Source: Candidatus Magasanikbacteria bacterium CG1_02_41_34
Lineage (GTDB): Bacteria; Patescibacteriota; Patescibacteriia; Magasanikbacterales; UBA922
Length of the DNA: 64,000 bases
Assembly: GCA_001871445.1 (NCBI GenBank)
Contig: MNVD01000025.1
Coordinates: forward strand, 8,808 to 72,807
Direction of reading: 5' to 3'
Of this stretch, positions 1,283-63,483 are shown piece by piece. The position numbers and the translations under genes are program-made. Position 1 is the stretch's first letter; every line of letters starts with the position of its first letter. The notes under the pieces were generated by a model that saw only the letters and a list, made by a program, of their open reading frames with translations, was not told the DNA's origin and ran no database searches.

Positions 1283-2842
1283 TCAGCGGCTGACGCTGCC
1301 GTGCCCGTCGCACGCGGTGCACGAGAGATCGAGCGTGCCGCTGGCCAGGAAGGCCTTAGCGGTGCTCTTGTCCACGCGCACGGTGTTGCCGCAGCCACAC
1401 CGGAAGCACCGCCCGCCGATGTCGGTGAATGTAGTGACCTTTCCGACGATGACCTGCGGCTCGGGCTCCGTGGGGGCTTTCACCACCTCCACGACTTGTG
1501 GAACCTCTTCCACGCGCTCCCGCCAGCGCATGTGGAGGTTCCACCCACCGTACTTCTGAAAGGCCAGAAGTTCGAGGGCCCCACCGGCACAAGCGACCCG
1601 GTAGATAACCTGCGCCTCCGCGTTATCACACCGCTCCCCGAAGGGCCGAGAATGATTCACGCGAGACACGTACCGGCGGTCGTCATAGGCCTGGTACATC
1701 TGGACGCCATTCCGACCGGCGATTCGGCCGTACGTCCACGACGCTGCGTCATACGACGAGACGCTTTTCAGGTCATCCGGCAGCTGGCTATGCGCCAGCA
1801 TGATGGCCTGAAAACGGACGGCTTCGTCGAGCAGACGCTGTTGCTCGAGGATGGCTGCTGCCTGTCGCTCGACCTCCTTTTTCTTGGCGCTCTCAGCCCT
1901 CTCCGAGGAGAGATCAACAAACGTGTGGAGCCTCGCGAGATCGGCGAGAGTGTACAAGAAGCTCTCGGAGAACTGAGCATCTGGTGCCTTCGCACAGAGG
2001 CAATCCTCGTGATCATAAAAAACGATCCCGAGCACCTCCATGCGAGGCTTGAGCGCCTCGAACCCTGCCTCGAATTCCTTCTTTTCGGTATTCTTTGCTT
2101 CCTCTTCGAGCACCTCGGCCTCGGTCCTGTCGACCTCGGCTTCGGTGTACTCGCGAAGATCCCAGATGGACTCTCCATAGTGGAACGTCTCATCTTCGAG
2201 GGTGATCCCCTTGAGCCCGATCGCCATGCGACGCTCGGACATGGACAGGAGACGTGGCTCGAAGACCGGCTTTTGCGTGGCATTCGCCGTACGCTGCCGA
2301 GCAGCCTCTGCTTGCTCCTCCGCCTCACGAGCTTTGCGCGCTTCGATCTCGCGCCAAGCCCCTTCGACGAAGGTCGCATCAAACGTCCCGACTTCTCGCC
2401 CTGTCTCCCTATCGAATTTGGAGGGCACTCGTGTTGCCACGAGCGTCCGATCCTTGTTCGGTCGGGAGATGAGGTAGCACTCTACGTTCTTCGCCCTTCC
2501 GGCGGTGTGGACGTAGAGCACATCCCCGGGCAACAAGGCCCAGAGCGACTGTTGAAGCTCGCCGATCTGCTCCCACGAGCCGGCGAGTGTTTTTTTTACT
2601 CGCTCCCACAGAAGCTTCGGCTGCCCAGCACGTCGCTGAGCGGTCGCCCCTCCCATGGTCGTGCCGTGCGGTCCGTACGGCCGCACGTACACCACCACGG
2701 CACCCTGCGGTGCTGTGGCCGCGACCTCCCGTGCCACCTGAGGCACGGCAGTCTTGGCGAAATCCGCAACGAAAAATTCTCCAATCCCCTGCTCGGGGAC
2801 AAGGAGGGTCTCAACGGTCTTGTTGGTGTTCTGGTTCGCCAT
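1283..2842 (-). CDS. Hypothetical protein, high-GC ORF (about 519 aa). It is coiled-coil and E/R-rich with a C-terminal Cys cluster (CFRCGCG...CTACDGHG).
   Basis: ORF 1283-2890. The best start is the MANQNTNKT ATG at 2842, preceded by GGAGAGGAGG. GC is about 63% with GC3 strongly biased. The overlapping plus-strand ORF 1220-3001 is judged to be an antisense artefact of the high GC. Confidence 0.5.
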   Translation of the reverse strand: MANQNTNKTVETLLVPEQGIGEFFVADFAKTAVPQVAREVAATAPQGAVVVYVRPYGPHGTTMGGATAQRRAGQPKLLWERVKKTLAGSWEQIGELQQSLWALLPGDVLYVHTAGRAKNVECYLISRPNKDRTLVATRVPSKFDRETGREVGTFDATFVEGAWREIEARKAREAEEQAEAARQRTANATQKPVFEPRLLSMSERRMAIGLKGITLEDETFHYGESIWDLREYTEAEVDRTEAEVLEEEAKNTEKKEFEAGFEALKPRMEVLGIVFYDHEDCLCAKAPDAQFSESFLYTLADLARLHTFVDLSSERAESAKKKEVERQAAAILEQQRLLDEAVRFQAIMLAHSQLPDDLKSVSSYDAASWTYGRIAGRNGVQMYQAYDDRRYVSRVNHSRPFGERCDNAEAQVIYRVACAGGALELLAFQKYGGWNLHMRWRERVEEVPQVVEVVKAPTEPEPQVIVGKVTTFTDIGGRCFRCGCGNTVRVDKSTAKAFLASGTLDLSCTACDGHGSVSR

Positions 2843-3138
2843 GATATCCTCCTCTCCCGTACGCGGGAAGGTGATTTCTCTCTCACACATACCCCATGGC
2901 AGGAAGTACAGAGAAAATGTATTTGTATTGCAGTGGTGTGTGAGGTATCCACTACAATAGGAAAATCCCTTTTAAACCTTCAATCTTTATTAAAAATTTG
3001 AAAGGGATGGCGAGAGTGAATTAAATTCAACTCTCGCCAAAAAAAAACGAATGCAAAATTTCAAAGAACAAAGTGGAGTTGTTTCTTTATCCTCCCCTTC
3101 GTACTCCATGACGAAGGAGAGCAGATTTTAGGAGAAGT

Positions 3139-4971
3139 TTAGTTGCCCGGCTTCTCCTCGGGCTTGAGCGCCCCGCCGGCCACCTCGTCGAGCTTGCCGC
3201 CGTTGTTGCGGACGGCGATGCCCGAGTCGAGGTGGAGCTCCTCCCCCTCACCAATCAACGCGACCACCATGGTCTCGTTATGCTTGTTGGTGGAGGCCGA
3301 GAGGCTCCAGGCCGCCGCGGTCCCGGTGGACCGGTGCGAGATGGAGCTGCCGCTGCTGCGACGGCTCATCTGCACCCAGGAGGCGCCGCGCTTCCACGCG
3401 ATCATCCCCTGGCGGTTGCCCTCGTCCCACACCAGGTGCCCGCCCTTGTCCTTCTTTGACACGAGCCGCGCAGGGAGGTGCCAAACGCTCTCGGGGAACG
3501 GGACGTCCTCCGGGTCGGGGAGCTGCATGAGCAACTCGATCCGGTCCCGCAAGCGGTCGTCCACCGAGACGAACATCTGATCCCAGCTCGCACCACCCGG
3601 CTGCACGCGGAAGTAGAACCGTCCGAAACCCTTCTGCGGGTGACGGCCGAAGTTGGCCAGCCACGCGCGGGCGTCGAACGTCCCCTTCTCGCACCGCAGG
3701 GCGGTCTCGAGAGCGGAGAAGTTCACAGAGCTGTAGAGCGTCGCCTGGAGCTTGGTGCCGTTCCACTCCTTGACGGAGCGGATGGTCACCCAGCCGTCAG
3801 GATGCTGCGGGATCGTGGAGATGAGGTAGCCGGGCAGGACCGACCCCGCTCCCACTCGCCGGAAGCCCTCGCCGTTCCACTTGTACGTCTCGAGCTCGAT
3901 GATCTCACCCTTGTGGGTGATGACCAGCTTGCCCTTGATGTACGCGTGGGACTCGTCTGGCGTCTCCGGCAGCACCAGGAGGAGCTGCTCGCGGAAGAGC
4001 GGCCGGTAGTCGTACGTGTCACCGTACGTCTGGACCGCTTCGCGCGCGCACCGGATGAGGAACTCGATGTCCTCCTGCTCCTCGAGCCACTCCGTCGTCG
4101 GCGCCACCTTGGCCTGCGAGGGCTTCAGGTGTCCGTCGACGACGAGCTGCCAGGAGAACTTGGACTCACCGGCGATGTAGTCCGGCGAGCTGGCCGAGTT
4201 GAAACCCGTCCAGATCGTGCGCCCGAGCTGCTCGTACACCGCCGTGAGCGCGGCGTAGTCGCCGGTCTCGTGGAAGGCGTCGATGGCCTTGCGGCTCATC
4301 TCGACTTCATGCTGACGCTGAGCCGTCTCGCGCTTCTCCTGGACTCGGCGGCTGATCTCGTACGAGTCGAACCGCGCCGCCTTGAGCAGCTTCTCCGGCT
4401 TGTCGGCGGCCCAGGCGTCGAGGCGATCGCGGTAGGAATCCCCATCCTCGCCGTCCTCGATCTCGGGCCAGACCAGCTTGTCCGCCTGGAGCTGCGTCTT
4501 GCGCTGCTCCTCGGCGAACTGCTCAGCCGCGCCACTGGTGATGGCGTCCAGGACCTCTCTGGCCTGGCCACAGAACGTCGGGCAGCCCTTGCGGCCACCG
4601 AGATTCGGCAGCCGACTGCGCCAGCTCTCGGCCTGCGACCGCGGCATGGCCTCGATCTGCCGCTCGATGAGGTTGTCGAACGCGGTGCGAGCCCGGTTCG
4701 TCCCCTCCTGAGCGCGGTCGAGAGCCGCGACGAGCCGCTCCTTGCCGATGAGCTCGATGGCCGCCGCGGCCCACTCGAGCGCCGACTTCTCGAACTCGTC
4801 CATCGTGCGGGTCGACGGCGTGATGCCGCGCCCGCTTCCGTAGCTCTCCTCGTCACTGTGGGCGACCACCGCGGGGGTGGCGCCCTGGTTGTTGTCGATC
4901 TCGATGGCCGCCTTGACGGCCTGCTCCGGGGACACGAGTCCCTGCTTCAGGAGCTGCTCCAGGATGCTCAT
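3139..4971 (-). CDS. Hypothetical protein, high-GC ORF (610 aa)
   Basis: Long minus-strand ORF with protein-like composition (MSILEQLLKQGLVSPEQAVKAAIEID...). GC is about 64%. I recognised no domain. The plus-strand ORF 3478-5076 is an antisense artefact. Confidence 0.5.
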   Translation of the reverse strand: MSILEQLLKQGLVSPEQAVKAAIEIDNNQGATPAVVAHSDEESYGSGRGITPSTRTMDEFEKSALEWAAAAIELIGKERLVAALDRAQEGTNRARTAFDNLIERQIEAMPRSQAESWRSRLPNLGGRKGCPTFCGQAREVLDAITSGAAEQFAEEQRKTQLQADKLVWPEIEDGEDGDSYRDRLDAWAADKPEKLLKAARFDSYEISRRVQEKRETAQRQHEVEMSRKAIDAFHETGDYAALTAVYEQLGRTIWTGFNSASSPDYIAGESKFSWQLVVDGHLKPSQAKVAPTTEWLEEQEDIEFLIRCAREAVQTYGDTYDYRPLFREQLLLVLPETPDESHAYIKGKLVITHKGEIIELETYKWNGEGFRRVGAGSVLPGYLISTIPQHPDGWVTIRSVKEWNGTKLQATLYSSVNFSALETALRCEKGTFDARAWLANFGRHPQKGFGRFYFRVQPGGASWDQMFVSVDDRLRDRIELLMQLPDPEDVPFPESVWHLPARLVSKKDKGGHLVWDEGNRQGMIAWKRGASWVQMSRRSSGSSISHRSTGTAAAWSLSASTNKHNETMVVALIGEGEELHLDSGIAVRNNGGKLDEVAGGALKPEEKPGN

Positions 4972-5094
4972 TCCATTTCTCCAGGGCTTTCGCCCACATG
5001 CTCTTTCCCATTTGGAATGACCGAATGGTCTTCAGACGATGGTACGACGGTACCGTGTCTTATCCATCAGGATTGAGCAGATTCTAGGCACATC

Positions 5095-5158
5095 ACTGTG
5101 CCCTTCTTCCAATTTTTTTAACGCAAAAAAACTCCTGAAGGGCACAGTATTATTTTTT
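5095..5158. promoter_or_regulatory. Nested palindrome upstream of the 3139-4971 gene, which also forms a plus-strand terminator-like hairpin
   Basis: A 12-bp perfect inverted repeat, actgtgcccttc (5095-5106) against gaagggcacagt (5137-5148). It encloses an inner T7-aacgc-A7 palindrome and is followed by a T-run at 5151-5158. Confidence 0.4.
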
Positions 5159-5223
5159 ATTATGTAAAGAACATAATATATTCCCAATTCTAAAATCTGA
5201 ATTCATAATTCTTCATTCGAACT

Positions 5224-5404
5224 GAGAGAGTAAGCAACCGAAGTGCCCACGCGGGGCGATTCGGTCGCCTTTGGAAAAATGATTTTATGAAATCATTTCT
5301 CGGAAGGAACATCATATATACACATATTTTGTAATGAACCGTTGCCAAACCACAGAGTGATTTGGGCATCTTGGTCGACGAGGAGTGCTACTCGTCGTCG
5401 ATCA
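5224..5404. repeat. Bipartite structured repeat, copy 2. Module A is 5224-5285. Module B is the hairpin at 5373-5404.
   Basis: Module A: gagagagtaagcaaccgaagtgcccacgcggggcgattcggtcgcctttggaaaaat. Module B: ggtcgacgaggagtgctactcgtcgtcgatca. It lies 3' of the minus-strand high-GC gene 5454-5972. It contains small hairpins (ggcgattcgRtcgcc) and a larger imperfect hairpin. Confidence 0.65.
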
Positions 5405-5453
5405 AGTGCAATTTTGCCACAGTCTTCACCGCTGGGGCTCGGTTATATGTCGG

Positions 5454-5972
5454 CTAGAGAGGGAGGTACTCGTCCACCTCCTCGAAGCGGACCGGGGCGT
5501 GATTCACGCGCTCCGGGAACTTCGAGAGGATGGCCTCATCGTGGACGCGAACACCCACGACGTAATACACCCCGCGCTCTGCGCCGAACAGCTTCACGTG
5601 GTGGCGCCGAGCCACCGGGTTCACCGGCAACCGGGCCTCCTTCTGCGTCACGAACTTCCCCGTAAGCACCTGACCAAGCCATTGCTTGGTAAACTGCTCG
5701 AGGTCGTTCCCCGCGACACCGCGGGCCGCCGACCACACGCCCGCCACGTCCAGCCAATTGCTCCCATCGTGGGAGCAGACCGCCGTGTACCTGGGCAACA
5801 TCCACCACCAGAGGGCGGGGAGGCCGAAGAACAAGGCGGCGAGGCCCACGACCGAGTCGAGGCCGCTCTGGTCCCAGACGCCGTCGGCGGCGACGAGGAT
5901 GTCGTGCCCGAAGGCGGCGGCGATGGCGATGACGACGGCGCTGGCGATGACGACGGCGATGAGCTTCTTCAT
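5454..5972 (-). CDS. Hypothetical membrane-anchored protein, high-GC ORF (172 aa)
   Basis: MKKLIAVVIASAVVIAIAAAFGHD... is a hydrophobic N-terminal anchor with a W-rich region. The RBS is TAGGAGGT. GC is about 64%. Confidence 0.5.
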   Translation of the reverse strand: MKKLIAVVIASAVVIAIAAAFGHDILVAADGVWDQSGLDSVVGLAALFFGLPALWWWMLPRYTAVCSHDGSNWLDVAGVWSAARGVAGNDLEQFTKQWLGQVLTGKFVTQKEARLPVNPVARRHHVKLFGAERGVYYVVGVRVHDEAILSKFPERVNHAPVRFEEVDEYLPL

Positions 5973-6019
5973 GATGACCTCCTAAAAGGCAAAGCAAACT
6001 CACCAACATGGCGAGTTGC

Positions 6020-6069
6020 GAGAAGCAATCAAGTGACAGTACTCATTACTGTCAATTTCATTGCTTCTC
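6020..6069. promoter_or_regulatory. Nested palindrome upstream of the high-GC gene 5454-5972
   Basis: Outer 10-bp inverted repeat gagaagcaat (6020-6029) against attgcttctc (6060-6069). Inner 8-bp inverted repeat tgacagta/tactgtca (6034-6054). Confidence 0.35.
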
Positions 6070-7363
6070 ACAACTATTTTTTCTAGTCAATTTAAATGAA
6101 CAACTTTCAAAAAAGTTTTTTCTCCAAAACTCTCGGAAAGCTAGGCGCGCAGACCATCTCAACCATCACGAAAAGATGATCTGTCACCATAGCCTTCTGA
6201 AAATTCTGCTGCTGCGAATTTCTTTCATGCACTATCTAACTAAATATATTTTCTCAAGTGCAAATGCGAAGAAGTAACTTCCAAAATGGGATTATTTTAT
6301 ATGTACACCCCGTGCCGTCACACTCCGCACAGTCATTCCAAAACAGTGGTAATGAATGTTTACACGTTGTACACAATGTTCGAATACTCATACACACGTA
6401 TTTACTTGTCTACTTACTACTTGTTACTTAATGAACATTCATCGCAATATATGCAAATGATGTCGCGAGTGTAAGAAAAATAAATTGGATCATACCGTTG
6501 TAAATAGTTTTCTGTATTTTTTTTGTTTGAAAGAACAATCATCAGTCTTGTTTTGCCAAGCAAAACATATTCTTCAATCTTTCTCTGCGTAATACAGAGT
6601 GTTCCCACTTTCATACATCTTGCGATGTATGAAGGAGGAACGCACTCGGTACTACAGTTTCTGATGAGACTGTAGTCTGATCGAGAAGGAGTGCCTTACC
6701 AAATTTCTTTAGCAATCACTATCAACTCCCATCAGCATTCTCCGTAGCCAAAGCGTTGGAGAAGAAAACCAGATGTGTATCTCACATCGCCGGAAAGAAT
6801 CTCTCTCCATAAGTCACGTGGCGTGAGCTTTACGGGACCTTTCCTTTTCTCGGGCGATGCGGGATCAGACACTTGTAAAGATTTGTATGCGTCAGTAGCA
6901 GACTACAAACTTCCGCATCCTTGTTCGTCTCACAACAAGCGAGAGACGAACTCAGACGTTTTGGAAGGAACCTTGCTCCGACAGATATGGATGGCAGTAT
7001 GTGGTCGAACGATGAATCGGTGGTGTACTCTAGAAAGATGTACTGTGCCGTGTCGTTCTTTGTCCGCCTTGGGCGGATTATGACCTCTCTCCGTGTCATC
7101 CATGTCTGTAGAAACAAAAACACTCTCTTGGTGGAGAGAGTATTGAAAATTTTTAATTTCCTTGGGCTCTCTCCTTCCCTTGGATATCCGTATTTACATT
7201 ATAAGGTGGGGGTCAATCTCGCTTCCCCTTTTCTCATGTTGACGGAATACTATATCACGCAATGCGATATTTGTCAATACTGAGTGGATAGTTGTTGTGG
7301 ACATATCCATTTTTTTGCTTAATTAAAGCCTTTTTTTGTACAAAATAACCTGTCCAGATATAC

Positions 7364-14456: not shown

Positions 14457-15182
14457 TCATCCCATGATGGCGGCGTACGTCCCGTACGACGCCAGCGTGA
14501 TGAAGAAGTTGTCCCACCAAGGGACGTACGCTTCCGCAAGCCCTCCTGCCAGTACAGCAAAGTATTGAGTCATGAACGTTGACGCACCGAGCGTTAACGC
14601 ACCAGTTGCGACAAGACCAAGGTCCAAGAACAACACCATGAGTGATGCCACGAAGATGAAGCTCAAAAAACCTGCCCAGGTCTTCTTATCCTTGCGACCC
14701 GGCAAGTAAGCCCCTTCGATGCTCTTGCCACCGATTCGCGCTGCAGGATCGCCCCACGACAAGATCGTCATGATGAAGAGGGCTTCTATCATCGGTGCGT
14801 GAAACACCAGACGAATGACGACAAGCCCGAGCAGGTAGCTGGACATCGCTGTCAGCTTTCCGCGTTCCTTCGGTCGAATGAACCAACGAGCGATATGCTT
14901 GTAGAACCACTCATACCAATTCGCGTACCAGATGCCAGGCGCCCACTTCTTCGAAGTCCAGTAGCCGGTGATCATGAAGGTCTCCACGACCGGCACGGCG
15001 ATACCGAAACCGATGAGCGTTGCATCGATATCGGCGTCAGTCACCTGTGGCATGACGACGAGTACGAATGCTACAACGTTGAAGATGATGTGCAGGAATG
15101 CACGTCCGAGCTCGAGCTCAGGCTTCTCGTTCGTAGTCGACTTCTTCTCAACGAAATTCTTCGAGTTCACATTGCCCTCCAT
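14457..15182 (-). CDS. Polytopic membrane protein, possibly in the CTP-dependent polyprenol/dolichol kinase or CDS-like family
   Basis: Multiple TM helices. Motif LSWGDPAARIGGKSIEGAYLPGRKDKKTWAGFLSF. The family assignment is tentative. Confidence 0.5.
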   Translation of the reverse strand: MEGNVNSKNFVEKKSTTNEKPELELGRAFLHIIFNVVAFVLVVMPQVTDADIDATLIGFGIAVPVVETFMITGYWTSKKWAPGIWYANWYEWFYKHIARWFIRPKERGKLTAMSSYLLGLVVIRLVFHAPMIEALFIMTILSWGDPAARIGGKSIEGAYLPGRKDKKTWAGFLSFIFVASLMVLFLDLGLVATGALTLGASTFMTQYFAVLAGGLAEAYVPWWDNFFITLASYGTYAAIMG

Positions 15183-24891: not shown

Positions 24892-26106
24892 ATGAACCAC
24901 CGCATCGACGCTCCCCGCGAGCACTCGTTCCTCGTCCGCTTCCTCCTGGTTCTCCCGTTCGGCGTGCTCCTGAGCACGCAGATCGGGTGCGCCGACGACG
25001 CGCAGCAGCCCGTCGTGACCGACGACTCCTCCATCACCGAGCGCCTCGATGCGCTCGAGGATCAGGTGGCGGGGCTCCAAGCGCAGGCCGATCGGGTCGA
25101 TCAGCTCGAGACCCGTGTGCACAGCCTCGAGCTGCAGCACCTGGTCGCAGTGGCCGACCAGCAGCGCCTCCAGCTGGAGCTGGACATGGCGAAGAGCCAG
25201 CTCGACCCGTTCGTGAAGACCTTCACTTTCGTCGGTGCCGAGACGCCGGATCCGTACGACACGATGGTCTACGTGAACGGATCGCTCAACCTCGGCATCA
25301 ACGACCTGCTCGTCCGCAACATCGGGGCGAGCAACGTCAACAGCGACCAGGCCACCTTCGGCGAAAGCTGGACACTCGGAGCACAGCACGTAGAGTCCTT
25401 GGCCTTCAAGCAGGACAACTACGAACGGTTCATGTACGGCTTCGACCTGGAGTGGATCCACCAGATCAGCCCGTTCACCCTGTCCAGTTACGACGAGAAC
25501 GGGGAGAGCGTGATCACGTTCACCAGCGGCCACGTCCGCGTGAACAACCTCCGCGCTTACAATCAGCTGCGCGGGGACACGTTGTACGTCGATACCTATG
25601 GCGCCATGCCCGAGCTCAACGTCTGGAATCGTCTCGTGACAGGGAACCTCGAGGCCTTCAGTGTCGAGGTCAAGGAGCTCCTGAACGTGCTCAACGAGGC
25701 CTCGTTTGGCTTCAACGACACGACGGGACCAGCGGTGACGATCACTCGAAATGGCCTCGCTAGCGGCATGCTGATCAGCTCACCAAGCCAGGTCAGTTAT
25801 TCTGAGAAGGCATGGCTCTTTCGCGCCAGCCAGCTCGTCTCGTTCGGCCAGTCCAACGGCGACGGAACCTGGAGCATGATGCTTGAGGACGCCAAGCTCG
25901 TAGCACGCAGAGGCATGTCAGTCTCGAACGAGAATGATAACTGGTTCAACCCAGGTGCCCTGGTGGTGCATGGAGACAGCAAGTTCAAACAGGCCAGCGA
26001 CGGCACGCCGGCAGATGTCACGATCGAGGGCAGCCTCAACGTGACCGGGGCGGCCGACACCGGCTGCTTGCAGACCGAGGTCGATTCCTGCATCGACCTG
26101 CAGTAG
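24892..26106 (+). CDS. Hypothetical secreted lipoprotein, high-GC ORF (404 aa)
   Basis: Signal peptide with a lipobox-like LSTQIGC. N-terminal coiled coil (LDALEDQVAGLQAQADRVDQLETRVHSLELQ). GC is about 64% and GC3 about 95%. The RBS is GAGAGG. Confidence 0.55.
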   Translation: MNHRIDAPREHSFLVRFLLVLPFGVLLSTQIGCADDAQQPVVTDDSSITERLDALEDQVAGLQAQADRVDQLETRVHSLELQHLVAVADQQRLQLELDMAKSQLDPFVKTFTFVGAETPDPYDTMVYVNGSLNLGINDLLVRNIGASNVNSDQATFGESWTLGAQHVESLAFKQDNYERFMYGFDLEWIHQISPFTLSSYDENGESVITFTSGHVRVNNLRAYNQLRGDTLYVDTYGAMPELNVWNRLVTGNLEAFSVEVKELLNVLNEASFGFNDTTGPAVTITRNGLASGMLISSPSQVSYSEKAWLFRASQLVSFGQSNGDGTWSMMLEDAKLVARRGMSVSNENDNWFNPGALVVHGDSKFKQASDGTPADVTIEGSLNVTGAADTGCLQTEVDSCIDLQ

Positions 26107-47229: not shown

Positions 47230-47600
47230 TATACTATATCTATGAAGAGGGGGCACGGTGCCACCTTTTTTTTGTCTCTAGCCAGAGGAGAGCCGCCATG
47301 CTTCCCGTCTCGAAGCACAGCCAGCCCCGCCGATCCCACCAGCACCTCACCGGCGGGCGCGTGAAGAACTGTCGGCTCCTCCGACCAAACAATCGCGCGG
47401 GATAGGCGCGACCCCCTCCTGCGTGCGAGATGCACTCAGATGAACGGCGCCACGCCGTGTGATGCGCGGGTGTTGAGTCGCTGAGGCGACTTCACCCATG
47501 ACAAGCGTCACGAAACCAAGGTCCGGACGGGAGCACACCGGCTCACTGTACATGAGCACTGTGTCACCCGTCCGGACCGCGGTGCATTCTAAAAAAGAAT
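47230..47600. other. GC-rich (~60%) non-coding block with no intact ORF. Contains a 12-bp perfect inverted repeat ggtccggacggg/cccgtccggacc.
   Basis: Composition matches the high-GC ORFs, but only short overlapping ORFs in different frames are present. It could be a decayed high-GC gene or an ncRNA. Confidence 0.3.
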
Positions 47601-58913: not shown

Positions 58914-59400
58914 ATATATATTTATATTACGGGAAGTATATCATACACCCCCCAACTATCCACATAGCTCTTTATATTTGCTTTTCACCATACTTGAAAA
59001 ATAATCAGAGATAAAAAATGGAGCATGTGGACGTAAAATTATTTATATTTACTTGTTTTTTGTTTCATTTAGGCTATTTTATCATGTCGTACAATAATAT
59101 TCTTTTGGTAAAAATTAAAAGCTTATTTAAATATAAAATTTGCACTTCTCCTATTTTATAGATAACATTACCTATAATCTGAAAACTCACAAATCTATAA
59201 CATACTATGTATATTTAATTTTTTGTTTAACGTACACAACACTGCCACCTACACATATTTTATGTTCTACATGAAAATACTATTTGCTAAAAAACTTACT
59301 GCATGGAAATCATCATTTTGTTCCATGTGAAACAAAACACGCTGCTTGTTTGCAACGTGTTTGTATAGAATACTGTGCACTTTGTAACATGAAAACTTGT

Positions 59401-59472
59401 GACCCCACCACGACTTGAACGTAGATCTAGACGTTAGGAGTGTCTTGTTCTATCCAGTTGAACTATGGGGTC
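59401..59472 (-). tRNA. tRNA-Arg (anticodon CCT), no encoded CCA
   Basis: Minus-strand GACCCCA...TGGGGTC acceptor, D-arm GTTC/GAAC, anticodon loop CTCCTAA, T-loop TTCAAGT. There is one A-C mismatch at the base of the anticodon stem. Confidence 0.6.
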
Positions 59473-59580
59473 TTTTTGTAAGTCTGCTTCAAGCCAAAGG
59501 ATCATTCACCTTAGGTAGAAACTATATGGCCAGTTGTTTCACATGAAACACTGCCACTCTACTTAAAATAACACATGCTG

Positions 59581-60306
59581 TCAACCTACAATATTCCACA
59601 TTACATCAAAAACCGCTTTGAACACATCCCTCATAACCGGAATTTCAATCAAAACTGCCATGGAACTAAGCTCGGAACTGACTATGAGAATTTTATCATC
59701 AAAAATATCAATAGTACTTTTAAAACTATATTGTTCTGATAAATAATGTACATGTCGTAGCAAAGAAGGATCTTCAGGATTTAATAGTTTTGACTCATCT
59801 GTCAAAATAAGTTGAGTGTGTATGTTATTTCTTGCACGATCAATCCTATATTGATGAAACCACTCACTATCTGCACCTTCCCATCCTTGTGCACTACCTA
59901 TAATGACATACTGCTTATCTCTATATTCGTAAAGAATACCTGTATAAAATTCCTTCAATTCATCCAGTGTCTCTATAAATCTCAATCCTGGTGTTTGCAT
60001 TTCCTTTTTTTCAAGCGATTGGAGCTGAGGAAGAATAGCATATAGATTATCGAGTTTTTTGCTATACAACGCAGCAAGTCTATTTGGCTTCTGAGCATAA
60101 AAATATCGCTTGTTTTTTCGAAAGTATACATGTACGTACCCTTTTGATGCCATTTGTTTGAGAGTATGATAAACAGTTGTACGCTTCACACCAGTACTTT
60201 TTGCTACTGCGCTTGCTTGGGACCCTCCCAGTTGTAAAAGTGACAAATAAATGTCAACTTCTGGCTCTGTAAAGCCTAGTTGTTTTAAAATTGCTATGTT
60301 TTCCAC
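59581..60306 (-). CDS. TrmB-family HTH transcriptional regulator (paralog of 7774-8556)
   Basis: N-terminal wHTH (IYLSLLQLGGSQASAVAKSTGVKRTTVYHTLKQMASKGYV) plus a C-terminal domain. It is divergently oriented to the high-GC gene at 60470. Confidence 0.65.
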   Translation of the reverse strand: MENIAILKQLGFTEPEVDIYLSLLQLGGSQASAVAKSTGVKRTTVYHTLKQMASKGYVHVYFRKNKRYFYAQKPNRLAALYSKKLDNLYAILPQLQSLEKKEMQTPGLRFIETLDELKEFYTGILYEYRDKQYVIIGSAQGWEGADSEWFHQYRIDRARNNIHTQLILTDESKLLNPEDPSLLRHVHYLSEQYSFKSTIDIFDDKILIVSSELSSMAVLIEIPVMRDVFKAVFDVMWNIVG

Positions 60307-60469
60307 AGTTTTGAGTGTTAAAATTTTTAGACAGTTAAATTATATACTATTTTTTTATTTAAATCAAGCTATTTTTATTACAAATATGTTTACAATCATT
60401 GACGTGACGACAAAAAAGAACTATTGTGTACTATCCGAAGCAAGTTGCTAGGGTACACAAGGAGATAGT

Positions 60470-61063
60470 ATGTCCCACAAGATCGTTGGACTGTTGATCG
60501 TTCTTTTCTCCATCGTCTCACCTCACGACACCCACGCCAAACCGCAGAACTACGTCGTAAGCGAATTCAAGGCTGACTCGAAGGTCTTCAAGCCGACCGT
60601 GAAAGGTGGTCTGGGTGGTGAAATCTCAGACCTCATCGGTATCAAGACCTTCTTCCTCATCACAGGAGGGTGGGCAGAAGCATACATTGGACCAACCATC
60701 TCGCTCGGTGAGCATCTGACACTCGGTCTGAGCTGCGGGATCGAGAGCACAGATGGTCGTCTCGAACCTCGGTTCGAGACATCGGTGAAGGTCATTGTTG
60801 ACGACTTTTCTTTCACTGGAATTCTGGAGTGGGGCACTGACGGAGACAAGGATCTCTGGTACAAAGTCATCAGTACCTACAAACTGACGCCGTGGCTCAA
60901 GGTCGGTGTGGAAGGTCGTCGGTTCGCAGGTTTAAGCCCGCATGTCTCTGTCGCTATACCAGAAATACCAGTTCATCTCTGGGCAAGCTGGATTCCATGG
61001 AATGTTGCGACAGGGGAGATCACGATCGAACGCACAATGTTTGGTATCACGCTCATACTCTAA
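60470..61063 (+). CDS. Hypothetical secreted protein, high-GC ORF (197 aa)
   Basis: Signal peptide MSHKIVGLLIVLFSIVSPHDTHA. Beta-rich mature region ending ...FGITLIL. GC is about 60%. RBS AAGGAGAT. A gtgtac...gtacac hairpin lies just upstream. Confidence 0.5.
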   Translation: MSHKIVGLLIVLFSIVSPHDTHAKPQNYVVSEFKADSKVFKPTVKGGLGGEISDLIGIKTFFLITGGWAEAYIGPTISLGEHLTLGLSCGIESTDGRLEPRFETSVKVIVDDFSFTGILEWGTDGDKDLWYKVISTYKLTPWLKVGVEGRRFAGLSPHVSVAIPEIPVHLWASWIPWNVATGEITIERTMFGITLIL

Positions 61064-61358
61064 CAGGCTTTATTGGGTGCTTACGAACACCATATCTGAC
61101 TCTGTAGATGAACAAGGGATTCTGGATTCGTCACCCAGCGCCCGCTCGAGCGATATCGAGCACCTTCATTCTTTCAAGAAAGTGCCTTACATTGCTTTTT
61201 TTTATTTTTCCGATTAACCTGCTATACTGCATACACATAAACGTATGCAACATATTTTCCTGTCATTTATCATAGCAGTCGCTACCTTCCTTGCAATGGG
61301 TATTATAGGATGTCTTTTTTCAAGACTCCGACGGTAGCATATTCTATACATTTTCTTT

Positions 61359-62483
61359 ATGGAGCACGCTCTCGTTATATTTCTTAGTGCCCTCCTTATC
61401 GCAACATTCGCTGCGATGTTTTTTCTGTACAAAAAACTGCATGATGCTGCACAACCTCAAAATCGTGATGAAGACAAACAACTGTTCATGATGCTCCAAC
61501 AACAAATTCAAGAACTGAATAAAACAGTGGATCAAAAATTGTCAGAGACACACAAAGTCATGAATGACTCACAACTTAATCTCAATAAAACAATTCAAGA
61601 TCAATTTGGACAAAACACAAAAATCATGCAAGGAATCACAGGACAAAGTACGAAGATGATCGCAGATATTACAGAAAAACTCACAACGCTCGACAAAACA
61701 AATCAGCAAGTGATCGGATTTTCAGAGCAACTTGGCAACCTCGAAAAAGTGTTAACAAATCAAAAGAAGCGAGGAAACCTTGGGGAAGCAGGCTTGCAAC
61801 TTGTGCTGGAAAATATTTTACCTCCAACAGCATTTCAACTTCAATATAATTTCCCTGATGGAGATATTGTTGATGCCATTATTTTTACCAAAGAAGGAAA
61901 TATTTGTATCGATGCAAAGTTTTCTCTGGATAATTATCAACGCATTCTTGACTGTATTGATGACAAACAAAAAGAACAACTGGAAAAAGAATTCAAAAAT
62001 GATTTGAAAAAACGAATAGACGAAACCAGTAAATACATAAAACCAAAAGAAAACACCCTCGACTTTGCTTTCATGTTTATTCCGTCAGAAGCAATTTATT
62101 ATGATTTGCTCGTGAATGAAGTGGGGGCAGTAAAAGTAAATACACGAAATTTGATTGATTACGCTTTCAGAGAAAAAAAAGTAATTATTGTATCGCCAAC
62201 AACATTTGCAGCGTATTTGCAAACAGTATTGCAGGGACTCCGCGCACTGAACATTGAAGAAGGAGCAAAAGAAATACGAAAGAATGTAGAGAAACTTGGG
62301 AAACATATTCTTGCGTATGAAGACTACATGAAAAAGTTGGGGAACAGTATGACAACGACAGTGAACCATTACAATACGGCGTATAAAGAACTAGGCAAAG
62401 TCGAAAAAGATGTGGTAAAAATTACAGACGGAGAACAAGAAATGGAGCCGTTGCTTCTCGAAAAACCCAAAATGGAAGAATAA
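61359..62483 (+). CDS. rmuC: DNA recombination protein RmuC
   Basis: N-terminal TM, long coiled coil and the C-terminal RmuC nuclease-like domain (FAFMFIPSEAIYYDLL...VIIVSPTTFAAYLQTV). Confidence 0.85.
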   Translation: MEHALVIFLSALLIATFAAMFFLYKKLHDAAQPQNRDEDKQLFMMLQQQIQELNKTVDQKLSETHKVMNDSQLNLNKTIQDQFGQNTKIMQGITGQSTKMIADITEKLTTLDKTNQQVIGFSEQLGNLEKVLTNQKKRGNLGEAGLQLVLENILPPTAFQLQYNFPDGDIVDAIIFTKEGNICIDAKFSLDNYQRILDCIDDKQKEQLEKEFKNDLKKRIDETSKYIKPKENTLDFAFMFIPSEAIYYDLLVNEVGAVKVNTRNLIDYAFREKKVIIVSPTTFAAYLQTVLQGLRALNIEEGAKEIRKNVEKLGKHILAYEDYMKKLGNSMTTTVNHYNTAYKELGKVEKDVVKITDGEQEMEPLLLEKPKMEE

Positions 62484-62503
62484 TAAGATTTTCTTTCACA
62501 TAT

Positions 62504-62532
62504 TGACAAAAATACTTTTTTCGCTTACTGTG
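62504..62532 (+). promoter_or_regulatory. Sigma70-like promoter candidate (TTGACA, 17 nt, TACTGT) upstream of the high-GC gene
   Basis: ttgaca at 62504-62509 and tactgt at 62527-62532. Confidence 0.35.
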
Positions 62533-62551
62533 TTTTCCAGTGGGCAAAGAC

Positions 62552-62578
62552 AAGCCACCACAATGGTGGTTTTTTCTT
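62552..62578 (+). terminator. Rho-independent terminator after rmuC
   Basis: CCACCA caa TGGTGG tttttt. Confidence 0.55.
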
Positions 62579-62634
62579 ACTCATGCTCGTGTATCAAAAA
62601 ATTTATATATGGGCAGGAGGAAGAATATATCTGT

Positions 62635-62687
62635 GTTTGAGTGCGTACAGAGTATCGGTGTTCTCGATATTATGTACGCACTCAAAC
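62635..62687. promoter_or_regulatory. 15-bp perfect inverted repeat (operator-like) immediately upstream of the high-GC gene 62714-63331
   Basis: gtttgagtgcgtaca, 23 nt, then tgtacgcactcaaac. It ends 26 nt before the ATG and RBS AGGAG. Confidence 0.4.
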
Positions 62688-62713
62688 CACAACCAAGCAA
62701 CAGGAGACTCGTC

Positions 62714-63331
62714 ATGAGAACTCAAGAAGAACTGCAACGACTCACACACGAAGTGCTCGGCGATGACTACTCCGTGTACTTCGTCTCGAAGTACACCCTG
62801 ACCGAGGACATCGAGGCCGGCACGGCCTGGATCGTCTGCCAGCTCGCACAGGTCGGCAAGAACCCGCTCTTCGCCGTCGAGGGCAAGGGCGTCGGCTTCA
62901 TCGACGCACTGTTCAATGGCCTCAAGCAAGGGCTCGTCGGGGAATACCCGTCGCTCGGACACATCCACTTTGTCGACTTCGTCGTCAGCGGCAACTTCCC
63001 GAAGGCCTCGCACTACAACAGCTCACACAGCGAGGTTCCGAGCACGGTGCGTCTCGTCATCAAGAACGACACCGGCCGCGAGTTCACCTTCGAGCACACG
63101 TCGACGTCGATCTCGGGCAGCTCGGTCGCCGCTGTCGTCCAGGGCGTTCAGCACTTCGTAAACGCCGAGATGGCGGTGCTCAGGGTCGTCAGCTGGATCG
63201 ACTACCACCAGAAGGACGGACGCCCAGACCTCGTCGAGAAATACACCCACGACAAGCTCGTTCCACTCAACCAAAACTCGAGCTACAGCGAGACGGTCGA
63301 GCGTGCGAGGCAGAACGCTAGGATCGCATGA
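62714..63331 (+). CDS. Hypothetical cytoplasmic protein, high-GC ORF (206 aa)
   Basis: Start at MRTQEEL (ATG 62714) with RBS AGGAG. GC rises from about 35% to about 63% exactly at the start codon. No recognised domain. A 10-bp inverted repeat hairpin tctacacgtc...gacgtgtaga follows the stop. Confidence 0.5.
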   Translation: MRTQEELQRLTHEVLGDDYSVYFVSKYTLTEDIEAGTAWIVCQLAQVGKNPLFAVEGKGVGFIDALFNGLKQGLVGEYPSLGHIHFVDFVVSGNFPKASHYNSSHSEVPSTVRLVIKNDTGREFTFEHTSTSISGSSVAAVVQGVQHFVNAEMAVLRVVSWIDYHQKDGRPDLVEKYTHDKLVPLNQNSSYSETVERARQNARIA

Positions 63332-63483
63332 CTTCGCCATGACGACAGAGACTCTACACGTCGGTACCTCTCGGTGCTGACGTGTAGATCTCTACACAAT
63401 TTATTATCAAATTCTCATATCACACTCGTGATATTTTTTTATGCTATACTATTTTTATTATTTTTCTTCATAATAAAGGAGGT

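Follow-up and report, generated by a model that had tools for sequence, protein, structure and literature searches.

We have analysed a 64,000-nucleotide stretch of the genome of Candidatus Magasanikbacteria bacterium CG1_02_41_34 (contig MNVD01000025.1, positions 8,808 to 72,807, referred to below as the window). Towards its right end two GC-rich open reading frames (ORFs), here called A (60470-61063) and B (62714-63331), lie on either side of the gene rmuC, as a preliminary description of this DNA had stated. That description had given both genes an abrupt GC rise at the start codon and an inverted repeat upstream, and had raised the possibility of one foreign donor. On balance it is probable that A and B are real but unrelated genes with different histories: B would have been acquired from Myxococcota, while A would be an exchangeable β-barrel gene, paired with a TrmB-type regulator and persistently GC-rich. 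The features of the locus are as follows.

59399 to 59472, minus strand: tRNA-Arg(CCT) (ARAGORN, Rfam), the left edge of the variable TrmB/A segment.
59581 to 60306, minus strand: gene of a TrmB-domain winged helix-turn-helix (HTH) regulator, 241 residues, divergent from A; GC content at third codon positions (GC3) ~0.26, as in native genes.
60399 to 60427, plus strand: promoter candidate of A, sigma-70-like TTGACG-17-TATTGT (9/12 in a consensus scan, a pattern match only).
60424 to 60460, plus strand: perfect 8-bp inverted repeat TTGTGTAC-N21-GTACACAA (arms 60424-60431 and 60453-60460), adjoining the Shine-Dalgarno sequence AGGAGA (60460-65).
60470 to 61063, plus strand: gene A, 197 residues, signal peptide and predicted 12-stranded transmembrane β-barrel (AlphaFold2, Foldseek).
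61064 to 61170, plus strand: GC-rich 3' tail of A, 50% GC.
61359 to 62483, plus strand: rmuC, a native gene with GC3 0.33, confirmed by PF02646 (178.7 bits).
62552 to 62580, plus strand: intrinsic-terminator-like hairpin with T-run after rmuC, conserved in all three genomes that carry the B locus.
62632 to 62690, plus strand: 5' hairpin of B, read as RNA (arms 62635-62657 and 62665-62687), holding a 15-bp perfect repeat.
62702 to 62707, plus strand: Shine-Dalgarno sequence AGGAGA of B, read directly from the sequence.
62714 to 63331, plus strand: gene B, 205 residues, a predicted stand-alone allosteric domain of the LeuA/citramalate-synthase type with a C-terminal helical hairpin (profile, fold).
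63347 to 63393, plus strand: 3' hairpin of B, at the equal position in three genomes with completely different inner-stem sequences.
63417 to 63440, plus strand: small terminator-like hairpin ATATCAC-ACTC-GTGATAT with T-run, conserved.
From 63484, plus strand: ChlI/ComM-like gene (ChlI domain, PF13541), beyond the 3' terminator of B.

A Na+/H+ exchanger is a further neighbour in the window that Pfam identifies.

ORF A has a GC content of 0.52 and a GC3 of 0.60, and for B the corresponding values are 0.60 and 0.84. Across the window the GC3 of the genes is bimodal, with native genes at 0.22-0.46 (rpoB/C 0.33) and a GC-rich set at 0.60-0.92. This set was thought to number six ORFs, though we count seven: 1283-2890, 3139-4971, 5454-5972 and 14457-15182 on the minus strand, 24892-26106 on the plus strand, and A and B, the seventh being 14457-15182. 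When followed in 200-nt windows the GC content steps from 0.29-0.31 to 0.49-0.54 on entering A and from 0.37-0.39 to 0.60-0.64 on entering B. The rise at the start codon is as abrupt as had been described for A, where it is precise to the ATG (the preceding 100 nt are 33% GC), but not for B, where it begins ~80 nt 5' of the gene within the hairpin region (47% GC). Beyond the stop codon both genes have a GC-rich tail of 60-110 nt (50-56% GC).

Five of these ORFs (B, 1283-2890, 3139-4971, 5454-5972 and 24892-26106) correlate in relative synonymous codon usage (RSCU) with a Myxococcota homologue of B (r 0.74-0.93) and share with it an excess of C over G at four-fold degenerate sites. A single Myxococcota-like donor, possibly a host, is therefore tenable for B and the other four, which were probably also acquired horizontally with this one signature. 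The codon usage of A is set apart, with an RSCU correlation of only ~0.5, a GC content at four-fold sites (GC4) of 0.51 and glycine encoded by GGT rather than GGC. The notion of one donor signature for all the high-GC ORFs, which the preliminary description would have given up if codon usage differed among them, is thus upheld for B and four others and fails for A. Ordinary codon adaptation was rejected as the source of the GC-richness, rpoB/C having a GC3 of 0.33 with no preference for G-ending codons.

The protein encoded by A matches without a difference a hypothetical protein of Candidatus Magasanikbacteria bacterium CG_4_9_14_0_2_um, so that the window belongs to a genome of the candidate phyla radiation (CPR; Patescibacteria); the exact protein is found on 14 contigs. 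In a word-indexed protein search only A itself was returned, and a profile search there with alignment A2 added almost nothing. The resulting impression of an orphan was overturned by an exhaustive phmmer/HMMER search of 1.8 billion representatives, which recovered 203 relatives of ~180-210 residues, the nearest named ones being Magasanikbacteria. No model of Pfam or NCBIfam (at E <= 0.1), PHROG or PADLOC matched A; a phage or defence origin was discarded on the lack of PHROG and PADLOC matches and of relatives on IMG/VR contigs. The AlphaFold2 model, based on a 37-sequence alignment, has a predicted local distance difference test score (pLDDT) of 92 and consists of a signal helix followed by 12 strands. 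Searching with this model in Foldseek gave matches to NanC, designed 12-strand transmembrane β-barrels, the invasin/intimin β-domains, OMPLA, KdgM and PcoB, with E values down to 1e-5. The strands alternate between a hydrophobic and a polar or charged face (mean alternation 3.3 Kyte-Doolittle units). Within the family 92% of members have a hydrophobic, signal-like segment at the N-terminus, 48% end in phenylalanine, as β-signals of outer-membrane proteins do, and 74% have an aromatic residue within the last three positions. From the model, A is predicted to be a Sec-exported 12-stranded β-barrel of the outer-membrane type.

The signal peptide, the length of ~200 residues and the 12 antiparallel, alternating strands are shared with the KdgM/NanC porins, the intimin/invasin β-domain and PcoB, small outer-membrane barrels of Gram-negative bacteria; members of the A family also often end in an aromatic residue, though the window's A does not. 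A is not, however, a sequence member of the KdgM/NanC family and the likeness is structural only (template modelling (TM) score 0.54; 0.5-0.6 for small outer-membrane barrels). KdgR and NanR are the neighbouring regulators of porins of this type, and A likewise has next to it a gene of the small-molecule-responsive repressor type. In contrast to the Gram-negative porins, the A family resides almost entirely in AT-rich genomes of CPR type, its partner regulator is of the TrmB type, and the gene is persistently GC-rich and swapped with the precision of the ORF.

The divergent TrmB-like gene had been noted before, and its HTH is borne out by PF01978 (57.7 bits against a gathering score of 25.6). 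The NCBIfam models match its N-terminal part only (TrmBL1 over residues 2-68, TrmB over 4-136; 34 bits against cutoffs of 600-650). The C-terminal sugar-binding effector domain of TrmB/TrmBL1 was not recognised by NCBIfam, and Pfam gave no further domain. We retrieved 27 A-family loci beyond the window from GTDB genomes, JGI metagenomes and Logan assemblies. Those with names belong to Magasanikbacteria, other Patescibacteria, Berkelbacteria and Saccharibacteria, with one AT-rich metagenome-assembled genome labelled Gammaproteobacteria; one contig is high in GC, and almost all of the loci are AT-rich and CPR-type. Upstream sequence could be read in 20 loci, and in 16 of these a divergent TrmB-HTH gene lies immediately or closely 5' of the A-family gene, so that the arrangement seen in the window is a recurrent one and the regulator gene a genuine partner of A. 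These partners have variable C-terminal regions and total lengths of 241-674 residues. Several of the intergenic regions contain TGTCAC-N9-GTGACA palindromes, located at the start of the regulator gene and abutting the -35 box of the barrel promoter, whereas the window has none.

The recurrent arrangement and the palindromes support a coupling of regulator and target. A and its divergent regulator would then form a two-gene module that recurs in AT-rich, nearly all CPR-type genomes, the regulator acting on the promoter of A from the shared intergenic region and A forming a channel in an envelope. The window's regulator resembles the archaeal sugar-sensing regulators TrmB and TrmBL1 in its N-terminal winged HTH (PF01978), as do the related loci in having palindromes that adjoin the promoter. 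The regulators of the A module differ from them in lacking a recognisable C-terminal sensor, in being bacterial (CPR) and in having a barrel gene as their putative target. Full-text searches of a paper library gave no description of the TrmB/barrel module.

In nearly all loci no neighbouring gene reaches the GC3 of the barrel gene: 0.71 with neighbours at 0.19-0.35 in locus L014, 0.84 with 0.26-0.38 in L016, 0.85 with 0.29-0.41 in L019, 0.67 with 0.23-0.28 in L029 and 0.69 with 0.31 in L046. The TrmB gene beside it is AT-rich like the rest of the genome. How the gene varies is best seen from L014 and L015, which come from near-identical genomes. Their flanking proteins are 78-98% identical and the promoter and 5' untranslated region (5'UTR) 85-97% identical as far as the ATG; from the second codon onwards the identity of the A ORF is ~50% in nucleotides and 44% in amino acids, with 76% of four-fold sites differing, which amounts to saturation. 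Identity returns ~100 nt past the stop codon. In a tree the Magasanikbacteria alleles form one clade, in which the L015 allele pairs with L016 and not with L014. Between the window and L001, a contig of the Magasanikbacteria genome GW2011_GWE2_42, DNA homology is lost over the whole segment from the tRNA to rmuC (~59570-61199). As judged from these alignments, the A ORF would be an exchangeable, hypervariable allele in Magasanikbacteria.

Such behaviour recalls the porin, flagellin and capsule loci of pathogens, where allelic replacement occurs between conserved flanks. A is like these hypervariable surface-protein loci in that the drop in identity between near-identical genomes is limited to one gene and in that the phylogenies of allele and flanks conflict. 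It differs in having its boundary precisely at the start codon, with a conserved and structured 5'UTR before it, and in that the variable segment is also the GC-rich segment. The saturated alleles have a GC4 of 0.65-0.83, compared with 0.11-0.24 for the native genes of those genomes. As they are saturated at synonymous sites their composition must be near equilibrium at these values, and so a recent single import cannot explain the GC-richness of A. Together with its distinct codon usage and the presence of the family, with its partner gene, in many AT-rich CPR-type genomes, this means that A is not a recent arrival from a single donor; of the foreign origin proposed earlier, the part concerning A as a one-off import does not stand. 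The GC-richness would instead be a lasting property of the gene family, and two readings of it are left: a gene-specific force acting in situ, or repeated replenishment from unseen high-GC carriers.

Around the barrel genes several smaller features were seen. A structured 5'UTR of ~130 nt is conserved before the A-family genes of one Magasanikbacteria group (L014 3860-3994, the L015 3860-3991 region, L016 ~3870-4000 and L046 ~1840-1970), and contains two hairpins, one of them long (GGGAAGAAGTG...CTACTTCTTCCC); it has no match in Rfam and is a candidate for a new cis-regulatory RNA. In the Berkelbacteria-type locus L037 (2875-3916) a unit of hairpin and Shine-Dalgarno sequence, GAGGTGCAGAT...CGACCTCTGGAGAA, occurs three times, before two small membrane-protein ORFs and before the barrel gene. 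Relative to L015, L014 has a 290-nt insertion (3570-3860) with a GC-rich membrane mini-ORF of 35 residues. The last part of the insertion repeats the terminator motif with which the 3'UTR of the barrel gene closes. A further small GC-rich ORF lies directly 3' of the barrel gene in L046 (2642-2800) and L047 (5705-5956), and the GC-rich unit may sometimes be of two genes.

B has a quite different identity. It matches the LeuA allosteric/dimerisation domain PF08502 with 24.4 bits (E 2.9e-5), and some of its homologues carry precomputed Pfam matches. The AlphaFold2 model, made with 16 homologues (pLDDT 90.4), shows a β-β-β-α double repeat followed by three long helices. Foldseek matched it at E <= 0.001 only to the regulatory domains of Mycobacterium tuberculosis LeuA and Leptospira citramalate synthase (3fig, 1sr9, 3f6g and 3f6h; E 3e-6 to 6e-5, TM-score on the target 0.63-0.72). 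The ~130 N-terminal residues of B thus have the fold of the C-terminal domain of these enzymes, with weak similarity in sequence. Unlike them, B has a C-terminal helical hairpin in addition, and its 205 residues do not include the catalytic HMGL-like TIM barrel, the citramalate-synthase model being covered at profile positions 401-515 only. That B is an α-isopropylmalate or citramalate synthase was accordingly ruled out, and because there is no catalytic domain it is taken to be a free-standing ligand-binding module and not an enzyme. In Myxococcota the family is a conserved free-standing protein, in an unrelated gene neighbourhood. It would seem likely that B is the ligand-binding, dimerising regulatory domain of these enzymes standing alone and fused to a helical tail, and that it acts as a sensor for a small molecule, perhaps a branched-chain amino acid.

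We found 16 homologues of B, of 201-239 residues, on Myxococcota or high-GC contigs and in two other Magasanikbacteria. The named ones are from Myxococcales or Myxococcota (59-75% identity), and those contigs of the remaining ones that were read have a GC content of 71-73%. On the Myxococcota contigs the gene lies in a conserved neighbourhood of 66-77% GC, with a sigma-54 activator, an RluA-type pseudouridine synthase, B, a haloacid dehalogenase (HAD) hydrolase, a major facilitator superfamily (MFS) transporter and DivIC, and it is therefore native there. The only carriers not of the Myxococcota type are Magasanikbacteria, namely GW2011_GWE2_42 (L001-L003) and the Logan contig L022, where the fragment of rmuC upstream of B is 96% identical to that of the window. 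All B homologues begin with MRTQ. A neighbour-joining tree groups the three CPR copies in a clade with a long branch that falls within the Myxococcota sequences, and our reading of the alignment gives two residues common to all three and absent elsewhere (in SGNF and xTGREF).

The B locus and both of its junctions are alike in the window, L001 and L022. On the 5' side the stop codon of rmuC is followed by the conserved terminator-like hairpin, the long 5' hairpin, CCACAACC, the Shine-Dalgarno sequence and the ATG of B; on the 3' side the stop codon of B is followed by the conserved CATGACGACAGAGAC, a stable hairpin with a divergent inner stem and the conserved small terminator. As these junctions are shared by three CPR genomes, the transfer is older than their split. 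The proposal of a foreign origin is therefore sustained for B by its nesting within the Myxococcota clade and by the native synteny in the donor. B was taken up once, from Myxococcota, by an ancestor of at least three Magasanikbacteria. In the course of events we propose, the source would be a lineage with the conserved rluA-B-HAD-MFS neighbourhood and the point of entry between rmuC and the ChlI/ComM-like gene; B would have retained the donor codon usage, by now partly ameliorated, under relaxed constraint. In its left arm the 5' hairpin of B has a short GTGTGTTGA motif in common with the regions upstream of the gene in Myxococcota, though this is only suggestive of the donor promoter region having come along with the gene.

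Since the transfer B has evolved rapidly as a protein. Between the window and L001 the identity is 92% for rmuC, 95% for ChlI and 73% for B (60% for B against L022). The ratio of nonsynonymous to synonymous substitution rates (dN/dS) is 0.34-0.55 for B and 0.05-0.06 for rmuC and ChlI (window against L001). B is thus about 6-10 times less constrained than its neighbours, consistent with relaxed constraint. Its GC4 is 0.78-0.91, compared with 0.93-1.00 in the donors and 0.36 in the flanking genes, and 33% of its four-fold sites differ between the window and L001, compared with 48% for rmuC and ChlI. Amelioration is under way in B but is slower than the neutral expectation. Compared with the host-to-episymbiont or inter-phylum transfers into Patescibacteria that have been surveyed (PMC12455944), B is alike in its anomalous composition, its nesting in the donor phylum and its patchy recipients, and differs in that it has persisted through speciation, its synonymous sites decaying little and its protein evolving fast. 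Taken alone, B is an ordinary inter-phylum transfer; a term search of the same survey found no mention of Myxococcota. Separately, the sister Magasanikbacteria contig L001 has a SAM riboswitch at 1661-1756 (RF00162, 51.9 bits), near another moderately GC-rich ORF.

The inverted repeats upstream of A and B are located where they had been reported, and only that of B is beyond chance. When the 163 nt between the TrmB gene and A are shuffled, 15% of the resulting sequences contain an 8-bp repeat (P ~0.15), and the fold of this region is unremarkable (z = -1.0 to -2.2); the repeat of A is therefore no more than chance would give, and a function for it cannot be demonstrated. The predicted -10 box of the promoter candidate overlaps its left arm. 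Across the A family, by our reading of the folds, small hairpins lie directly 5' of the Shine-Dalgarno sequence in roughly 8-12 of 20 loci. The 15-bp perfect repeat of B (62635-62687), on the other hand, was not obtained in any of 200 shuffles. It extends to arms of 23 nt that are 91% complementary around a 7-nt loop, and the fold has a z of -5.8 to -6.9. RNAalifold on the three genomes gave 28 pairs, three of them preserved through changes on both sides, with further changes of the G-U type. As G-U pairs work only in the sense-strand RNA, the element is read as a stem-loop in the 5'UTR of B and not as a protein-binding palindrome. The 3' hairpin is also stable in each of the three genomes (z = -6.5, -6.8 and -5.3). 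Flanked by the conserved 5' stem-loop and by this 3' stem-loop, the mRNA of B may be stabilised or gated by them.

The hairpins match no Rfam covariance model (only tRNAs were found, the next best hit being mir-466 at 22 bits, E 0.77), which ruled out a known riboswitch or leader. An integron cassette was also rejected, as the hairpin lies 5' of B, its ends GTTTGAG...CTCAAAC are in the reverse order of the attC cores (RYYYAAC...GTTRRRY), which would lie 3' of the ORF, and there is no array; the Pfam scan found no integrase among the neighbouring genes, and A and B are single genes between native ones. As a set the GC-rich ORFs have upstream folds modestly more stable than those of native genes (Mann-Whitney p ~0.02), and equally strong folds precede several native genes of the window. 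No motif is common to the upstream regions of all the GC-rich ORFs, GTGTAC...GTACAC occurring only upstream of A and inside B. The latter occurrence is a 10-bp perfect inverted repeat, GTGTACTTCG/CGAAGTACAC, at 62774-62796 within the coding region, with the same GTGTAC/GTACAC ends as the repeat of A. After the stop codon of rmuC (62505-62580) a promoter-like TTGACA-17-TACTGT precedes the terminator-like hairpin, conserved in three genomes; in L001 the two are separated by an insertion of ~100 nt. This region may serve B as a leader or attenuator, or may be no more than the terminator of rmuC.

It had been suggested that the 15-bp repeat might be bound by the TrmB-like regulator, and by extension both repeats could be operators through which the regulator controls A and B together. 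Each contains a GTAC core (GTGTAC and GCGTAC, with GTGTAC in the L022 version), the repeat of A coincides in part with the predicted -10 box and the start of transcription, and GTGTAC-N(10-35)-GTACAC is expected 0.02 times in the window and seen twice, in a test chosen after the motif had been seen. We nevertheless regard this as improbable. The arms are 21-23 nt apart, unlike known TrmB sites (TACT-N3-AGTA and TATCAC-N5-GTGATA) and unlike the TGTCAC-N9-GTGACA palindromes of the related modules; the repeat of A does not exceed chance; and the repeat of B lies 2.3 kb from the TrmB gene and has stayed paired by way of compensatory and G-U substitutions, a sign of an RNA element. The hairpin of B is also conserved in L001 regardless of a TrmB paralogue there that is only 23% identical. 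A chimeric assembly or contaminated bin, to which the sharp switches of composition in a metagenome-assembled genome might lead one, is scarcely credible, as the same junctions occur in independent assemblies of differing study and source (NCBI LCEK01, ENA ERZ27254726/7 and Logan SRR5487657), the exact A protein is on 14 contigs and the same pattern recurs in more than 20 loci. That all the GC-rich ORFs, including A, are recent arrivals from one high-GC donor and await amelioration would agree with the codon usage and C>G bias common to B, the four other ORFs and the Myxococcota homologue, and A and 14457-15182 (GC4 0.51 and 0.59) might have come earlier in the same series and be further ameliorated. 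This too we think unlikely. It already fails for A on codon usage; in more than 20 independent loci of AT-rich, CPR-type DNA the A-family gene is GC-rich and the TrmB gene next to it AT-rich, and the Magasanikbacteria alleles of the family form one clade that is saturated and yet keeps its high GC4. The exchange of A is precise to the ATG behind a conserved native 5'UTR, which illegitimate import of foreign DNA would not yield, and even B is older than the split of three genomes.

A more serious contender, which we hold to be possible though not the likeliest, is that the GC-richness of A, and in part of B, is actively maintained in an AT-rich CPR genome, by selection on synonymous sites (for mRNA stability or structure, or for deliberately rare codons in a potentially toxic pore) or by GC-biased gene conversion. 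The high GC4 of saturated alleles in genomes of low native GC4 would follow from this, as would the coincidence of the swapped with the GC-rich segment if conversion acts where alleles recombine, and the behaviour of the four-fold sites of B, which show fewer changes than its neighbours do and a GC content above neutral expectation. Clade members with flank-like rates (L021/L034/L038) are only mildly GC-enriched, which also fits. On the other hand the lack of a G-ending preference in rpoB/C speaks against ordinary codon adaptation, gene conversion requires a heteroduplex that alleles of 50% identity cannot form, and high-GC donors could be hidden.

Our preferred reading, of a Myxococcota-derived B and a persistently GC-rich, exchangeable A, has difficulties of its own. 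Fewer four-fold sites differ in B than in its native neighbours (0.33 against 0.48) and its GC4 is above the ~0.70 predicted since the split by a two-state neutral model calibrated on the flanks; as its synonymous sites are too little changed and its GC4 too high, plain amelioration is not the whole story. With 24.4 bits B falls just short of the Pfam threshold of 24.9. The last residues of the window's A are ...GITLIL, with a leucine and not the terminal phenylalanine, and the literature regards CPR bacteria as monoderms (10.1101/2021.05.31.446380; PMC8871954), which makes the membrane receiving a barrel a puzzle. In L001 the ORF at the position of A (3744-4340) has no detectable homology to it by BLASTP (E 0.06) or hhalign (which aligned the signal peptide only), and was rejected as an orthologue. 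As most representatives of the A family are without taxonomy, the CPR alleles may include high-GC members that go unrecognised. Finally, we infer the control of A by the TrmB-like protein from gene order alone.

More speculatively, and in our view rather unlikely as a whole, AT-rich CPR bacteria may keep a class of genes, of which the TrmB-linked barrel would be the type, that is held GC-rich in situ by a gene-specific force (selection on synonymous sites or GC-biased conversion linked to recombination) and exchanged between lineages as cassettes precise to the ATG behind a conserved, structured 5'UTR. The barrel might be a pore that the episymbiont inserts into a diderm host's outer membrane, and the derivation of B from Myxococcota would be a hint to the identity of this host. 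The TrmB/barrel module is of note as an outer-membrane-type barrel in a monoderm-type lineage, with GC-richness and allele swapping that are persistent and precise to the ORF. If our reading holds, calls of recent horizontal gene transfer that are based on composition would be unreliable in CPR genomes, as the A family is GC-rich through saturated divergence. There would then also be a widespread, regulated and hypervariable barrel of the outer-membrane type in bacteria thought to lack an outer membrane, and it would be a concrete candidate for a symbiont-host interface or a phage receptor. B, and perhaps four more genes derived from Myxococcota, would give a testable prediction of the host or partner of an uncultured Magasanikbacteria lineage, and the TrmB/barrel pair with its conserved 5'UTR structures could be cloned for tests of regulation in organisms that have no genetic system.

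Elsewhere in the window three other GC-rich stretches were noted. The ORF 14457-15182 on the minus strand (GC3 0.70) encodes a multi-pass membrane protein of 241 residues between the S15/NYN genes and ruvC; its product has no Pfam match and its codon usage is intermediate, as for A (GC4 0.59). The region 1283-5972, also on the minus strand, holds three successive GC-rich ORFs of 535, 610 and 172 residues (GC3 0.74-0.92), with no match in Pfam, PHROG or PADLOC and with codon usage near that seen in the Myxococcota homologue of B. A hairpin lies upstream of each, and a 10-bp perfect repeat, GAGAAGCAAT/ATTGCTTCTC, lies within 5973-6090. Lastly, ~340 nt at 63% GC (47260-47600) lie 3' of a tRNA (U5) methyltransferase gene and terminate at a terminator-like hairpin. 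This segment contains only a short ORF (47299-47405) and matches no Rfam family; it may represent either a structured RNA or the decayed remains of a GC-rich gene.

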